From an uncultured Chloroflexia bacterium (lineage in GTDB: Bacteria; Chloroflexota; Dehalococcoidia; DSTF01; JALHUB01), in assembly GCA_963726245.1 (NCBI GenBank), contig CAVSBT010000026.1, positions 1 to 38,969 on the forward strand: a DNA stretch of 38,969 nt, given 5' to 3'. Below, one piece after another: positions 1 to 5,690 of the stretch. The notes under the pieces were generated by a model. The model saw only the letters and a program-made list of their open reading frames with translations. It was not told the origin of the DNA and searched no databases. The position numbers were made by a program, and so were the translations under genes. Each line of letters begins with the position of its first letter. The stretch's first letter is position 1.

Positions 1-1679
1 CGGCCTCCTGTGGAGACAGGGCCGGCCGGTACGGACGGTCGGTGGTCAACGCATCATAGACATCGCAAACAGCAGCGATGCGGGCGACGAGCGATAGCTT
101 CTCGCTCCGAAGTCCCTGTGGGTAGCCGCTTCCGTCAAGCCGCTCGTGATGGCACAGCACGAAATCAAGCACTTCTGGCATCAGGCTGAGGTCTCCCAGG
201 ATTCTGACGCCCAGCAGTGTATGCCCATCCACAACCAGGCGTTCCACATCCGAGAGACCTGCGGGCTTCAGCAGAATGGCGTCGCGAATGCCGATTTTTC
301 CGACATCATGCAAATAGCCGCCGACTCGTAGCGCGTCGAGCGTAATCCCACGCAGTCCGAGCCGCTTACCCATGAGCCGGGCCAACTCACCCACGCGCAT
401 AGAGTCCCCGCAGTATAGGGGTCCCGAGCATCGACCACAGCCGTCAGCGTCTTGATGGTGTTGAAGTGATGCTCGCGGAGTTGGTGGGTACGGGATCGCA
501 GGCTCGCGGTCATGTCATCCAAGGCTTTCGCGAGCACCGCGATCTCGTCCTCCCCCGCGACCGTGCTTCTCGCGGATAGGTTGCCGGAGGCAACCTTGCG
601 TGCTGCTCGGACGAGCCGGCCAACGCGAGCAGTGATGGCGTGCGCCAGCAGGTAGCCGATCACCAGTACCAGCAACATAGCCACGCCGAGCACAGCGCTC
701 ATCTGCCAGCGGGTCACGCCGCCGGCCTCGAAGATAAACTGCGTTGGTAGCGCGACCGAGTATAGACCCACAACCTGGTTGCGGACGATTAGCGGGCCAT
801 AGGCGAGGTCATAGTCGCGCTTCCAAACGCTTCTCCTCTCCCGAATCGTCCCCTCGTGCTTCCCTAGAATGGACTCCACCGTGGAGGAGCCTATCCCAAG
901 GTTCACCTCTTCACTGGCGCTGCCCCCGCCCGCGAAGGTGCTAGTGAGAGGGCGTCCTTTGAAGTCGTAGAATGTCACATCGGCCAGCGCTTCCTCCCGT
1001 GCCTGTCTGGCCAAGCTGTCAAGATATGTCCCAACCAGAGCAACTCCCACAATCTCCGTACCGGAGCGAATGGGCCCAGCGGTGAAGAAGGTCAGCCCCT
1101 CAGGGGTCTCCACGAGACCCGCGAACTTGTCACCCTGCTCATCACTACCGGCTTCAAGCACGCTTTGTACCGGGGGCCATTGGTTCGTGGCGGCTGCATC
1201 GACCGGCCGATATGTTAGGCCAGCCTCCGGCCCTTCCCCGGTCAGACCCAGCAGACGATTGCCGCTCCTGTCAATTATCTCAGCCCGCTCAAGGCCTAGG
1301 TTCGTCATCAAGGGCTCCAGCAGCGTGGTGAGGCTCTGCGTGTCTCCGGCGGCCACGGCCTGTCCCACACCTTCTGTGAAGGCAAGCGTACGCACACCTT
1401 CTAGGTGGTTTCGCTCGTTTCGCACCACAGCATCGGCGGCTACGCGCCCCGCCTCGGCGAGTTGATTGTCGAAGCGCTCCCGAAGCGGCCGGCGACGAGT
1501 GTGGTCACCATGTAGGTTCCGGCGGCACCCAAGAGTACGGTGAGGAGTGCATAGGGACCGATGATCTTCCAGCTAAGGTGCCGGAGGGGCCGGCCCCAGA
1601 GGGATTTCGCCGCATGGGCGAGGGGCGCGATGCTGGCCGCTGGTCTGGGCACTCGCAAGTGATCACGCATCCAGCGCAT
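1..1679 (-). CDS. Membrane-bound sensor-HAMP-HD-GYP phosphodiesterase (3' end outside the window; apparent frameshifts near 1435-1480 and 405)
   Basis: TM helix in ORF 1440..1679. ORF 268..1428 has a second TM and HAMP motif (RVGRLVRAARKVASGNLSAR...EDEIAVLAKALDDM), then DARDPYTAG. Another frame reads GGYLHDVGKIG, HHERLDGSGYPQG and DVYDALTTDRPYR. Start codon uncertain. Confidence 0.85.
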
Positions 1680-1899
1680 ATGTCATTATCGACGACTCAC
1701 CCCAAATTCATCATAGACTCCCTATCAGCATCAGGAGGGCCTCACCTTCATGTGTTTGCAGTGTCACAAACCCGAAGATGGGGAGCGGCGGTGATATGCC
1801 TCGGAGCACTTAGGATTGGGTATCCCTTAGTCGGTGGACCTTTCCGGGCGACGTTGTGCTGAATCTACCGGAGAAAGACGAGGGTATACAGAGTGACGA

Positions 1900-1925
1900 G
1901 TCCCCTGGTCGTGAAACCAGGGGAC
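1900..1925 (-). terminator. 10-bp hairpin downstream of the tRNA cassette, possible terminator
   Basis: GTCCCCTGGT-cgtgaa-ACCAGGGGAC perfect stem; no clear U-tract. Confidence 0.4.
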
Positions 1926-1944
1926 AGATTCGAACTGGGAGCTT

Positions 1945-2019
1945 TGGTAGCAGCGGGTGGGATCGAACCACCGACACGGGGCTTATGAGTCCCCTCCCGC
2001 CGCAGGCGGGTACGCTGCC
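1945..2019 (-). pseudogene. tRNA(CAT)-like copy with the D-arm replaced by a CCCGCC-TGC-GGCGGG hairpin
   Basis: Minus strand reads GGCAGCGTA-CCCGCCTGCGGCGGG-AGGGGACTCATAAGCCCCGTGTCGGTGGTTCGATCCCACCCGCTGCTACCA. It is 75 nt and identical to the tRNA at 2286..2360 outside the 15-nt D-arm segment. Confidence 0.85.
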
Positions 2020-2261
2020 AGCCAGGCCCTTAGCCACTCGCGTCCACGTCCCGATTTCAGGAACCGCTCTCGACGGCGCGCTTCCCCTTCCGACTCATAC
2101 GATTCTTGATGCACCACTTCGAAGGGCCTGTTGCGCGAGGACCATCCCCTGGGATACCCCCGATTATGCTCCTCCAGACGCTGCTCTACAGGACGTGAAG
2201 TGAACCCGACGTAATGCCGCCCGTTCCGGAGACTGCGCAGGACGTAAACCGTGAAGGGCAT
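1983..2261 (-). CDS. Small stand-alone GIY-YIG nuclease (~92 aa)
   Basis: MPFTVYVLRSLRNGRHYVGFT...QRLEEHN...EARRRERFLKSGRGR: VY/YVG motif pair with conserved Arg, His and Glu. Alternative ATG at 2267. The stop codon lies in the anticodon loop of the tRNA-like copy. Confidence 0.9.
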   Translation of the reverse strand: MPFTVYVLRSLRNGRHYVGFTSRPVEQRLEEHNRGYPRGWSSRNRPFEVVHQESYESEGEARRRERFLKSGRGREWLRAWLAAYPPAAGGDS

Positions 2262-2285
2262 GTCCATGGGAGAGGTAAGAGGCTT

Positions 2286-2360
2286 TGGTAGCAGCGGGTG
2301 GGATCGAACCACCGACACGGGGCTTATGAGTCCCCTGCTCTACCACTGAGCTACGCTGCC
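2286..2360 (-). tRNA. tRNA with CAT anticodon, probably elongator tRNA-Met (Ile2 not excluded)
   Basis: GGCAGCGTAGCTCAGTGGTAGAGCAGGGGACTCATAAGCCCCGTGTCGGTGGTTCGATCCCACCCGCTGCTACCA: canonical D-arm, anticodon loop CTCATAA, TTCGA T-loop, encoded CCA. Confidence 0.95.
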
Positions 2361-2371
2361 CCCGTGGCCGC

Positions 2372-2401
2372 AGTATAGGCCATCGCCTCGAATCTGGTCA
2401 A
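2372..2401 (-). promoter_or_regulatory. Putative sigma70 promoter for the tRNA
   Basis: Minus strand TTGACC (2401-2396), 18-nt spacer, TATACT (2377-2372), 11 nt before the tRNA 5' end. Confidence 0.6.
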
Positions 2402-2445: not shown

Positions 2446-4323
2446 ATGGCCACCCGCTTCGCCGACCAGCTACGCGCCCTGCCCGCTCGCCCCGGCGTCT
2501 ACATCATGCGCGACGCCCAGGGCGAGGTCATCTACGTGGGCAAGGCGGCCAGCCTGCGCAGCCGCGTCCGCTCCTACTTCGGCTCGCCCCACAGCCTGGA
2601 GCCCAAGACGCGCCGCCTGGTCGAGCAGCGTGGCCGACTTCGACTACATCGTCACGAGCACCGACCAGGAGGCGCTGCACCTGGAGGCCACCCTGGTCAA
2701 GCGCCACCAGCCCTTCTTCAACGTCCGCCTCAAGGACGACAAGCACTACCCCTACCTGAAGGTGGACCTCAACAACCCCTGGCCCCGCGTCTACATCACC
2801 CGCCGCGTGGAGAACGACGGCGCCCGCTACTTCGGGCCCTACGCCAGCGCCTGCTCGGTGCGCACGACGCTGGACATCGTCAAGAAGCTCTTCCCCTGGC
2901 GCTCCTGCACCAAGACCATCACCGGCAGGGACCCGCGCCCCTGCCTGGACTACTACATCCACCGCTGCATCGCGCCCTGCACCGGCTACTGCACGAAGGA
3001 GGAGTACGACGAGGTCATCCGCCAGACCATCCTCTTCCTGGAAGGCCGCACCGACGAGGTGGTGCGCGACCTCCGCGCCCGAAGATGGACGAGGCGGCCG
3101 ACGCCCTCCAGTTCGAGCGCGCCGCCTCCTGCGCGACCAGATCCGGGCCATCGAGCGCGTCTCCGAGAGGCAGGTGACGGCCTACACCCGGCCCGTGGAC
3201 GAGGACGTCTTCGGCCTGGCCCGCGCCGACGGCGAGGCCTGCGTCCAGGTGTTCTTCATCCGCGGCACGAAGATGATCGGCGGCGACCACTTCACCCTGG
3301 ACGGCACTCAGGAGGAGCCCGACGACGCAGGTCATGGCCAGCTTCCTCAAGCAGTTCTACGAGTCGGCCACCTACGTGCCCCGGCGCATCGTCCTGCCCC
3401 TGGCCGTGCCCGAGCAGCCGCTCATCCAGGCCTGGCTCGCCGAGCGGCGGGGCAGCCCGGTGCAGCTGCTGGTCCCGCAGCGAGGCGAGAAGCGCCGCCT
3501 GGTGGCGATGGCAGACGACAACGCCCGCGAGGCGCTGGCGATGGAGCGCGTCAAGTGGCTGGCCGACACGGGCAAGACGCGGGCCGCCCTGGAGGAGCTC
3601 GCAGGAGGAGCTGGACCTGCCGCCGCTGCCCCGGCGCATCGAGTGCTACGACATCTCCAACATCCAGGGCACCTCGGCGGTGGGGAGCATGGTGGTCTTC
3701 GTCGACGGGCGGCCGCGGCCGGCCGAGTACCGCCGCTTCCGCATCAAGACGGTGCGGGGCGCCAACGACTTCGCCATGCTGGCCGGAGGTGCTGCGCCGT
3801 CGCTTCAAGCGCGCCTCGGCCGCTGAGCCTGTCGAAGATGCCGCCACCGCCTCTGCCGCAGGCGAAGCCCCGTCCGGCGAGGGCGACGGCTGGGCCGCCC
3901 TGCCCGACCTGGTCATCGTCGACGGCGGCAAGGGGCAGCTCAGCGCCGCCCACGACGTCATGCGCGACCTGGCGGTGGGCCACCTGCCCCTGGCCGGCCT
4001 GGCCAAGCGGAACGAGGAGCTCTTCCTGGTGGACGAGGCGGAGCCGATAGTGCTGCCGCGGACCTCGCAGGCCCTCTACCTGGTGCAGCGCGTCCGGGAC
4101 GAGGCGCACCGCTTCGCCATCACCTACCACCGCAAGGTGCGCGCAGAAGGCGGGCATGCGGTCGGCGCTGGACGCGGTGCCGGGCATCGGGCCGAAGCGG
4201 AAGCAGGCGCTGCTGCGCAAGTTCGGCTCGGTGAAGGGCATCCGCGAGGCCGAGCTGGACGACATCGCCGCCACCGTCGGCTTCACGCGCCGCCTCGCCG
4301 AGAAGGTGAAGGAGTACCTTTAG
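2446..4323 (+). CDS. uvrC: Excinuclease ABC subunit UvrC (several apparent frameshifts)
   Basis: PGVYIMRD...[17 protein letters not shown]; [10 protein letters not shown]; YFGPY; [13 protein letters not shown]; [12 protein letters not shown]; [13 protein letters not shown]; [16 protein letters not shown]; C-terminal HhH (PGIGPKR). Pieces lie in three frames. Confidence 0.95.
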
Positions 4324-4353
4324 GGCAGCACTCAGCCGGCCCGTGAGAAGAGA

Positions 4354-4409: not shown

Positions 4410-5321
4410 CTAGTGGGCGCGCGGGTGAGCGCCTTCGTAGACCTCGCGCACGTAGTCGGTGGTGATCTTCGTGTACACCTGCGTCGTCGACATGTTGGCG
4501 TGTCCCAGCAGCTCCTGGACGTTTCGCAGCGGCGCGCCGCCGGTCAGCATGTGCGTCGCGAAGCTGTGGCGCAACGTGTGCGGCGTCACCGGCGTGCTGA
4601 TGCCGGCCTGTTTGGCGTAGCCCTTCAGGATGAGCCAGAAGCCCTGGCGGGTGAGCCGGTCGCCGCGACGGTTGACGAAGACGGCGGTGACCCGCCGGTC
4701 GCGCACCATGTGAGAGCGACCGTCCTCCAAGTACGCCTCCAGCGCCTCGAGGGCCTGCCCGTGGAGAGGGAGTGTGCGCTCTTTGGACCCCTTGCCCAGG
4801 CAGCGAACGTGGGCGCCCGACCGGTTCAGGTGAAGGTCCTTCATGTCCAGTGAAACCAGCTCTGTGACCCGCATCCCCGTGGCGTAGAGCGTCTCCAGCA
4901 TGGCGCGGTCCCGTCGCGCCTCGGGGCTGAAGCGACGTGCCGGCTGCTCCAGGAGTTCGTCAATCTCGCGCACCGACAAAGCCTTGGGCAGCGACTTGCC
5001 CACCTTGGGAGAGTTGAGGCCCTCCGCCGGGTTCTTGCGCAGGGTGCCCTCCGCCTGGAGGAAGGAGAAGAAGGATTTGACGGCCGCTACCTTCCGGGCC
5101 ACGGTGGCATCGGCGTAGCGTTTGCGCCGCAGCTCGAGGATGAAGTCTACAAGGGCATCGCGGTCCACTCGGGACCAGAAGGGCCGGTCGCCGTCGACGG
5201 CGAGACCGAGGACGTAGGTTTTGAGTTGCTCAACGTCATTCTTGTAGGCGGCAATGGTGTTGGAGGAGGCTCCTTTTTCTACCGAGAGGAAGTTGAGGAA
5301 GTGGTCGATCTCGTCTTCCAT
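4410..5321 (-). CDS. xerD: Tyrosine recombinase XerD
   Basis: MEDEIDHFLNFLSVEKGASSNTIAAY; RDRAMLETLYATGMRVTEL; GKGSKER; TPHTLRHSFATH; VQELLGHANMSTTQVY. The ATG at 5321 fits a 303-aa XerD. Confidence 0.92.
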   Translation of the reverse strand: MEDEIDHFLNFLSVEKGASSNTIAAYKNDVEQLKTYVLGLAVDGDRPFWSRVDRDALVDFILELRRKRYADATVARKVAAVKSFFSFLQAEGTLRKNPAEGLNSPKVGKSLPKALSVREIDELLEQPARRFSPEARRDRAMLETLYATGMRVTELVSLDMKDLHLNRSGAHVRCLGKGSKERTLPLHGQALEALEAYLEDGRSHMVRDRRVTAVFVNRRGDRLTRQGFWLILKGYAKQAGISTPVTPHTLRHSFATHMLTGGAPLRNVQELLGHANMSTTQVYTKITTDYVREVYEGAHPRAH

Positions 5322-5559
5322 GAGCCATTGACCTCTCGTTCGCTGTGCGGGGTTAACTGACTTGGGGCGGCCCAATTCTACGGACAGGGGGCCGTTGTTG
5401 TCTAGGCGGGCGGCGAGAATCTTGCGATCTTTTTGTTGGTCCTTAACCCAAGCAGCACGTTGCAGGACGCTGCGGCGCCCAGCCATGCGTCCGGCGTGTA
5501 ACGACAAGACTGGGTCGACGTTATCCCTGGTGAAACTGAACGAGCGCTTCCATGCGCAG

Positions 5560-5667
5560 GCTGTTGAGGCCGCTTCGGGCGTAGTCGCTCGCGGAGAGCG
5601 CACACTTTGGTCACCGAAACGCCCCGAAGCCTCCCGTAAGGGAAAGGCCAGTGGTGAAACCGGCAGC
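5560..5667 (+). promoter_or_regulatory. Putative c-di-GMP-II riboswitch aptamer (variant)
   Basis: P1 GCTGTTG/CGGCAGC; unpaired A; P2 GGCC/GGCC; P3 GCTTCGGGCGT/ACGCCCCGAAGC; loop TTTGG-TCACC can pseudoknot with GGTGA in AGT-GGTGA-AACC. This is the class II layout, recognised by eye only. Confidence 0.7.
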
Positions 5668-5690
5668 AGTGGGCTGCCGGTTTGCATTTT
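5657..5690 (+). terminator. Riboswitch expression-platform terminator
   Basis: AAACCGGCAGC-agtgg-GCTGCCGGTTT followed by GCATTTT; the 5' arm is the aptamer's 3' end. Confidence 0.7.

Follow-up and report, generated by a model that had tools for sequence, protein, structure and literature searches.

A stand-alone GIY-YIG nuclease gene, 15-nt palindromes and tRNA relics form a recurrent and probably selfish cassette in tRNA transcription units

SegB is a multi-domain, phage-borne GIY-YIG nuclease with a DNA-binding part, and in SegB as in I-TevI a DNA-binding module reads a long target. The available passages of its description present SegB as a free-standing homing endonuclease encoded in a T4-type tRNA cluster, which cleaves the tRNA region in genomes without it and favours its own inheritance (PMC2330249), and the accessible parts of a 2026 paper report that it drives segmental amplification of its locus (PMC13096335). 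Here we describe a chromosomal locus of an uncultured Chloroflexia bacterium, placed by GTDB in the Dehalococcoidia, in which the gene for a very small GIY-YIG nuclease lies between an intact tRNA(CAU) gene and a second copy of that tRNA whose D arm has been exchanged for a palindrome. The locus lies in what we call the window, the whole stretch of DNA that was analysed, which is contig CAVSBT010000026.1 of the metagenome-assembled genome (MAG) GCA_963726245.1, positions 1 to 38,969. By behaviour, as far as those passages go, SegB is the nearest known case, a GIY-YIG nuclease gene likewise sited among tRNA genes; the cassette protein, in contrast, is a bare catalytic domain, is chromosomal, and is accompanied by conserved palindromes and a tRNA relic. 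We have little doubt that this three-part unit is real and recurrent, and we read it, with a probability of roughly 0.6, as a minimal selfish, mobile nuclease cassette embedded in tRNA transcription units. The free-standing selfish nuclease gene is a kind already known, and we rate the arrangement with palindromes and a tRNA relic as new.

The cassette consists of a gene for an Slx1/UPF0213-type protein limited to the catalytic domain (about 80-92 codons), one or more GC-rich 15-nt palindromes and part of the host tRNA in duplicate. Of the two tRNA copies, one is intact and functional, and the other, the relic, bears palindromes in place of an arm or within one. With the UPF0213/Slx1-like proteins BH0048 and EF2693, the cassette protein shares its single-domain size and the conserved Tyr, Tyr, Arg, His and Glu; no function has been assigned to these proteins, and an ERFLKSGxGR motif is the cassette subfamily's own. 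The available passages of a 2006 survey of the superfamily are silent on tRNA-gene adjacency, palindromes and mobility (PMC1564403). Integrative elements at tRNA genes also present one intact tRNA copy and a displaced partial direct repeat, but the cassette is without an integrase, measures about 0.3 kb rather than kilobases, leaves 5' or 3' relics and has palindromic arms, and no recombinase was found inside the element beside an att-like repeat. REP/RAYT systems, IS200/IS605 elements and integron attC cassettes resemble it as tiny units of one enzyme gene with hairpin-forming cis palindromes. Their enzymes are HUH or tyrosine recombinases that act through covalent intermediates, whereas GIY-YIG enzymes are hydrolytic; for REP/RAYT in particular, the partner gene here is GIY-YIG and not HUH, the motif is not concentrated at tRNAs, and REPs are dispersed in many extragenic copies while the cassette palindromes are confined to tRNA relics beside the gene. 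The first-pass annotation, made from the sequence of the window alone, knew of no formal description of such an arrangement, and in the literature searched, which left most subscription journals and supplements uncovered so that an earlier description is possible, we found no account of tRNA-adjacent stand-alone GIY-YIG genes with palindromes.

In the window, the intact tRNA (copy A), the nuclease gene and the relic (copy B) are all encoded on the minus strand (Table 1). The two tRNA copies, offset by 341 nt, align with 9 identical, 15 differing and 55 identical bases, of which the first block corresponds to the 5' acceptor strand plus positions 8-9 and the last runs from position 25 through CCA and the trailer, covering the anticodon arm, the variable loop, the T arm and the 3' acceptor strand. 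The exact 55-nt repeat of tRNA(CAU) is unique in the window, which excludes a chance origin. ARAGORN, Rfam, alignment and Pfam thus confirmed the order proposed by the first-pass annotation, namely tRNA(CAT), GIY-YIG gene and a second 75-nt copy at 341 nt, and the alignment likewise agreed with its statement that copy B keeps the AAGC trailer and differs in the 15-nt D arm only. Its further remark that the unit holds no integrase was also correct, as the nuclease gene is the sole open reading frame (ORF) in the approximately 265 nt that the repeats enclose; tblastn found this gene in a single copy in its own genome.

Copy B retains much of the appearance of a tRNA. The Rfam tRNA model scores its site (1948-2019, minus strand) at 37.5 bits, with a gathering score of 29, and it folds as a cloverleaf whose D arm consists of a 6-bp stem capped by a 3-nt loop. 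However, the only tRNA that ARAGORN calls in the whole window is tRNA(CAT) at 2286-2360 (minus strand), and copy B, with its noncanonical D arm, fails as a functional tRNA; it is therefore tRNA-like in shape only. In a functional tRNA, purines of the canonical D loop dock on the T loop. The nuclease ORF, 94 codons long if it starts at the ATG at 2267 and 92 if at the ATG at 2261, reads through the first 38 bases of copy B and uses the anticodon-loop TAA (1985-1983) as its stop, with codons 81-92 and the stop falling within the relic and the C-terminal tail of the protein being read-through of relic tRNA. By converting G10 to C, and hence TAG to TAC at tRNA positions 8-10, the swapped D arm makes the ORF longer by nine codons, from T8-A9-C10 through tRNA position 35.

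A single promoter-like site was detected on the minus strand within 1700-2600, at 2401-2372, where shuffled sequences average 0.2; none was present between copy A and the nuclease ORF, and sites of the TTGACA/TATCAT type occupy the equivalent place in syntenic relatives. Inspection by eye revealed no Shine-Dalgarno-like purine run in the leader (2262-2285). The stem-loop downstream of copy B also trails this tRNA or its relics in relatives, as well as a third partial copy on another contig of the same genome (C27).

Table 1. Cassette features and their positions in the window
Feature	Position	Strand	Basis
Sigma-70-like promoter site, TTGACC, 18 nt, TATACT; just 5' of the intact tRNA	2372..2401	-	10/12 consensus positions
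Intact tRNA, copy A; anticodon CAU (Met or Ile2 on comparison of the genome's three CAU tRNAs), CCA encoded	2286..2360	-	ARAGORN; Rfam 62.1 bits; cloverleaf fold
Trailer AAGC and pyrimidine-rich leader (~24 nt) before the start codon	2262..2285	-	Sequence reading; homologous leaders in relatives
Stand-alone GIY-YIG nuclease gene	1983..2267	-	ORF; Pfam PF01541
Relic tRNA, copy B; equal to copy A apart from the D arm	1945..2019	-	Pairwise alignment; Rfam; cloverleaf fold
Palindrome CCCGCC-TGC-GGCGGG (15 nt, perfect) in place of tRNA positions 10-24; one of the class found family-wide	1996..2010	-	Alignment
Repeated trailer AAGC (4 nt) 3' of copy B	1941..1944	-	Alignment
Stem-loop, 11 bp, no T run, downstream of the relic	1900..1925	-	Fold z-score -4.66

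The Pfam model GIY-YIG (PF01541) matches residues 5-71 of the protein (E = 2.2e-11, 44.3 bits, cut-off 22.6) as its single Pfam domain. In profile searches of the PDB, the best matches were the UPF0213 proteins BH0048 (1zg2, E = 8e-12) and EF2693 (1ywl, E = 2e-9) together with SLX1 (E = 3e-8), with I-TevI reaching merely E = 0.19, and with one catalytic domain and these nearest profiles the protein falls in the stand-alone Slx1-like/UPF0213 branch. In two alignments, one of 19 homologues and one of 82, residues Y7, Y18, R29, H33 and E66 show no variation or a conservation of at least 90%, and we take them to be the GIY Tyr, the YIG Tyr, the Arg, the His/Tyr and the metal-binding Glu of the catalytic site; the subfamily-specific ERFLKSGxGR motif lies towards the C-terminus. 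The sole NCBIfam result was a sub-threshold match to a group I intron endonuclease, and PHROGs gave weak similarity to phage endonuclease families (E about 1e-3). A comparison of 12 close relatives gave a median dN/dS of 0.115 for the catalytic core, based on the 60 of 66 pairs in which dS was usable; the nuclease is under strong purifying selection, and the protein looks functional. In the same relatives the 36 tRNA-derived bases that end the ORF are 97% identical, versus 80% for the core, which indicates that the relic part is either constrained or homogenised at the nucleotide level.

The arrangement recurs far beyond this genome. A pattern was used to scan species-representative genomes; at least 599 stretches came back, at least 553 of them confirmed relatives, and the best 80 loci were analysed. 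They come from Dehalococcoidia, Omnitrophota, Patescibacteria, Acidobacteriota, Planctomycetota, Bacteroidota, Gammaproteobacteria and other groups, cultured isolates included, for example Epilithonimonas pallida DSM 18015 (L120) and Spongiimicrobium sp. (L115). A tRNA lies within 200 nt of the gene in 60 of the 80 (upstream in 23, downstream in 43, with some loci having both), and every one of these recorded neighbours is on the same strand as the gene; for comparison, about 1.4% of the window's own genome lies within 300 nt of a tRNA. For 122 gene copies, the closest tRNA on the same strand and no more than 450 nt away was taken as the label, and these labels comprise 15 isotypes, so the suggestion of the first-pass annotation that homologues would adjoin tRNAs of varied isotypes held. 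Relics scored above all shuffles by more than 8 units in 18 of 26 pairs with an upstream tRNA and in 20 of 44 with a downstream one, and at Ile, Val, Asn and Ala loci the 3' parts of relics are 100% identical to the intact copy. Within ribosomal RNA operons, we observed cassettes downstream of 16S, after tRNA-Ile (L011, L018) or after tRNA-Ile and tRNA-Ala (L013), with a 23S gene behind the cassette in L013 only. One locus with the gene and both palindrome types (L089) comes from a MAG filed as Woesearchaeota, a DPANN archaeon, and the family may reach archaea.

Two architectures were found. In the first, that of the window, an intact tRNA stands upstream and the relic behind the gene; the D or anticodon arm of the relic has become a palindrome, and its 3' part equals that of the intact copy, often with the trailer. 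In the second, the order is promoter, a relic of the first 13-28 bases of the tRNA, one or two abutting 15-nt palindromes, leader, gene and intact tRNA, such that the 5' relic is upstream and the intact tRNA downstream of the gene. Of 34 such loci, 18 have the gene stop within the tRNA, nine of these precisely at positions 8-10, and in most of the other 16 the stop precedes the tRNA by no more than 10 nt. As a formal description, which does not speak for a circle, both architectures are circular permutations of one unit composed of the tRNA 5' part, palindrome, tRNA 3' part, leader and gene. Exchange within the 3' part would yield the window form and exchange within the 5' part the other. Bacteroidota loci contain arrays of three or four copies.

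Palindromes accompany the gene throughout the family. The count was of perfect palindromes with a 6-bp stem, a centre of 3-4 nt and CGCC/GGCG or AGCC/GGCT as the core; 75 of 98 loci have one within 160 nt of the gene ends. There are 149 matches in 38.8 kb near the gene versus 6 in the 189.9 kb of flanking sequence that lies more than 400 nt off, an approximately 120-fold difference in density, and the enrichment is also present in genomes of 33-45% GC. Both outer stem pairs are complementary in 149 of 158 cores near the gene, and six stem variants recur, with outer dinucleotides TC, CC, GT and CT plus two forms with the AGCC core, around an unconserved centre. Complementary outer pairs around an invariant core mean that dyad symmetry is kept through compensatory change, and this conserved core and symmetry argue for a cis site read by the co-travelling protein or for a required hairpin. 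That copies with a palindrome in place of the D arm would be found family-wide, as had been anticipated from the window, was correct for the relics and the palindromes, although the D arm is not the sole site: in other lineages the palindrome replaces or interrupts the anticodon arm, the D loop or the T arm, with blocks at the recurrent tRNA positions 8/9, 9/25, 17/18, 25 to 38-45, 28/29, 37/48 and 63/64. The first-pass annotation had also called the motif at tRNA genes REP-like. We reject a general, genome-wide REP, since the motif is not concentrated at tRNAs in its own genome, which holds 16 exact copies and 118 copies of a broad motif (versus about 32 in shuffles, approximately 3.7-fold), only 2 of the 118 within 300 nt of a tRNA.

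Presence and absence of the gene vary within the lineage. Of 41 related genomes, 25 have homologues, in as many as five copies per genome, and the remaining 16 gave no match; a same-strand tRNA lies 8-243 nt upstream in 16 of 19 loci. Within one genus, a syntenic locus made up of a membrane-protein gene, promoter, tRNA(CAU) and downstream gene is found in three states: the tRNA alone (G011, G012), a palindrome-laden pseudo-tRNA with the gene absent (G009), and the pseudo-tRNA plus the gene (G002). Further tRNA-only sites exist in G006 and G008. Empty sites, which the first-pass annotation had suggested looking for, therefore do exist, and the same target site is polymorphic for presence and absence, as for a homing endonuclease.

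The number of units varies as well. The cassette of G005 has the window form, its relic carrying extra GC hairpins in the anticodon loop and T arm, and between promoter and intact tRNA this genome holds at least 8 tandem 37-nt units (tRNA positions 1-38 with the swapped D arm). Close relatives have 0, 1, 2, 6 or at least 8 such 5'-relic units. After the tRNA-Asn of G004, a 334-nt unit of leader, gene and pseudo-tRNA occurs three times, the pseudo-tRNA having an identical 15-mer in its anticodon arm and in its T loop, and L148 has a second gene copy 3' of the relic. In the window's own genome, C27:63104-63216 (L039 3104-3216, minus strand) is a third, 5'-truncated copy of tRNA(CAU), with the anticodon loop changed to a palindrome plus 9 nt, the same stem-loop behind it and no nuclease gene alongside; the homologous site of G007 has the full gene and relic unit. 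As to the arrays between promoter and intact tRNA, they were seen at L040 3100-3420 (G005), L147, L148, L141 and L037 (G010), in units of 32-37 nt that comprise the tRNA 5' part with the swapped D arm and end in the anticodon loop at position 33 or 38. At L141 201-600, the match to the nuclease ORF spans 400 nt for 93 residues, and the gene appears to be interrupted by an insertion.

Taken as a selfish cassette, the unit could work as follows. Having no promoter-like site of its own, the gene would probably be co-transcribed from the tRNA promoter, and its product may break or nick tRNA-gene DNA, whereupon host recombination over the tRNA homology would copy the cassette into unoccupied tRNA genes. 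Arrays, solo relics and deletions could then result from unequal exchange between intact copy and relic. The palindromes would serve as a cis element travelling with the gene, for example a site that the nuclease binds or reads by its structure, and they disable the relic as well; that the nuclease recognises the palindrome directly is a tentative proposal to which we give somewhat less than even odds. A stronger version, which we think a little more doubtful still, holds that the cassette represents a separate class of mobile element, autonomous and about 330 nt long, with a structure-specific, domain-minimal GIY-YIG nuclease. In that version, the enzyme would cut at tRNA arm or loop positions exposed as hairpin or cloverleaf, the 15-nt palindromes would be the element's own cis sites, and the unit would be copied through the tRNA homology into tRNA genes, in either of its permutations; relic and palindrome units that lack the gene would represent non-autonomous derivatives whose mobilisation or amplification takes place in trans.

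Several points weigh against a selfish, mobile cassette. Cleavage, movement and palindrome binding are all steps that we infer from the patterns above. No domain beyond the catalytic core, and no DNA-binding module in particular, was detected with Pfam, NCBIfam or PDB profiles, and with the protein differing in this from characterised GIY-YIG homing endonucleases, site-specific targeting is left unexplained. The intact copy beside the cassette should stay a target, with no evident immunity, and simple homologous repair into a new isotype would yield a chimeric, dead tRNA. Among the 122 gene copies, the closest cross-isotype pairs share 70-76% protein identity and no near-identical cassettes at different isotypes were found above 76%; jumps, if any, are therefore rare, and many cassettes may be vertically inherited. 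A tblastn search of phage and plasmid collections with one member (P0046) at E 1e-6 returned no homologue, and G003, whose genome is about 97% complete, has relics with palindromes but no homologue for this query.

Of the other explanations, the one that fares best, although we consider it improbable, is a host gene with a tRNA-linked role, be it in processing, surveillance or repair where tRNA loci are strongly transcribed, or else in defence; duplications and palindromes would then be recombination by-products or hairpins that regulate and stabilise the mRNA. The strong purifying selection (median dN/dS 0.115) would suit such a role, and so would the stability of the isotype within clades (Arg-ACG in Acidobacteriota, Met in Bacteroidota) and a gene that is always on the tRNA strand, seemingly without a promoter of its own. 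A role in RNA metabolism has also been suggested for a prokaryotic Slx1-like domain fused to a tRNA methyltransferase, in the passages available of the superfamily survey (PMC1564403). However, the gene is patchy even within a genus, with the syntenic absences in G011 and G012 and no match in 16 of the 41 relatives, it varies in copy number and forms tandem arrays, and its isotype changes between lineages. A generic stabilising hairpin would moreover need no CGCC core conserved over phyla and GC contents, and for the defence version, PADLOC models gave no match for three family members.

Slightly less probable again, and compatible with a selfish cassette, is the idea that the relic itself is functional, its tRNA-like RNA serving as a processing signal, a protective mRNA end or a decoy. 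Copy B scores above the Rfam tRNA threshold and folds as a cloverleaf, the tRNA-derived stretch of the ORF is better conserved than the core (36 nt at 97% versus 80%), and the relic 3' part tracks lineage-specific T-arm changes of the intact copy; both architectures, in addition, put hairpins at that end of the presumed transcript which the intact tRNA does not cover. Stems with a single mismatch have 10 G.T, 4 A.C and 10 other mismatches, a G.T excess that is not significant. Against a functional relic, many relics lack one acceptor strand or most of the tRNA, with no common tRNA-like fold, and cleavage by RNase P at the relic or at a downstream tRNA would take away the stop codon, which lies inside the tRNA in 18 of the 34 loci of the second architecture.

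It is very unlikely that the tRNA repeats are attL/attR scars of integrase-driven islands and the nuclease gene leftover cargo. Copies that are 5'-truncated from about position 23, in an att-like manner, do occur in the window's own genome (C27), in G004 and in G007, and the window contains a tyrosine recombinase gene at 4410-5687. Yet no recombinase lies between or beside the repeats: the one in the window is some 2 kb away, beyond uvrC and on the 5' side of the tRNA. The nuclease gene is also the only gene at the tRNA in 60 of the 80 loci, across many phyla; relics of the 5' part and of the 3' part both occur, and the repeats enclose just about 265 nt and carry palindromes that have no counterpart in att sites. 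The recombinase (minus strand) has an XerC/D-like architecture, with Phage_integrase and N-terminal SAM-like domains and an N-terminal extension of about 120 residues.

That the second tRNA copy is an artefact of assembly or binning in a strain-mixing MAG has next to no probability, even though the contamination of this MAG is 6.28%, its contig C26 starts with 1.9 kb that are 97% identical to part of C27 and carries frameshifted genes, and no single public contig spans 1941-2360, because the same arrangement is found in the independent contig L138, in G005, in G007 and in 13 of 14 close metagenome relatives, and Logan contigs without a difference run from the palindrome into the gene. Metagenome contig L138, whose protein has 95% amino acid identity, repeats uvrC, tRNA, gene, D-arm-swapped relic, stem-loop and the same downstream sequence, and in the 13 relatives (79-95% identity over the 14) the ORF ends in the same kind of relic. 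Two other runs, X1 and X3, yielded Logan contigs that match 1979-2169 and 1979-2210 with 0 differences and cross the junction of palindrome and gene; contigs of this kind are short and stop at the 55-nt repeat, and none covers the whole unit. These two lines of evidence establish that the arrangement is not an assembly artefact, which settles the first-pass annotation's own reservation about a misassembled copy.

As regards the surrounding DNA, the MAG has 2.68 Mb in 46 contigs and is 82.8% complete. Window positions 1-1888 are 97% identical to C27:64718-66610 of the same MAG (L039), and a dCache/HAMP/HD gene that is intact on C27 (615 residues) is in three pieces in the window; this duplicate suggests that the bin contains a second strain or that the contig is rich in errors. 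The uvrC gene at 2446-4346 (plus strand) is spread over at least three reading frames, with the first shift near 2620-2630, in its own GIY-YIG domain, and the RNase H-like domain in another frame, by either sequencing indels or gene decay. Two tRNA-SeC genes and duplicated Cys/Leu(UAA) tRNA pairs lie on different contigs of the genome, consistent with mixed strains in the MAG. Three long ARAGORN calls of 87-95 nt (on C17, C25 and C15, one a hairpin-bearing 95-nt "tRNA-Cys") were rejected as false, being inside GC-rich coding sequence.

The cassette bears on the duplication and rearrangement of tRNA genes, and it is apparently a widespread selfish element that has gone undescribed. If the reading as a selfish, mobile cassette is true, a nuclease of about 85 residues together with a 15-nt palindrome would suffice for the colonisation of tRNA genes in phyla that range from Patescibacteria to Bacteroidota and Chloroflexota, and the large, functionless UPF0213/Slx1-like family would gain a testable biology, with a compact nuclease and its defined palindromic partner at hand for biochemistry. 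It would also explain a class of pseudo-tRNAs, assembly breaks next to tRNAs and the extended ORFs annotated as "GIY-YIG nuclease family protein". Should the more doubtful version of a distinct class of element prove true, the tRNA genes of many phyla would be the habitat of the smallest known self-propagating DNA element.

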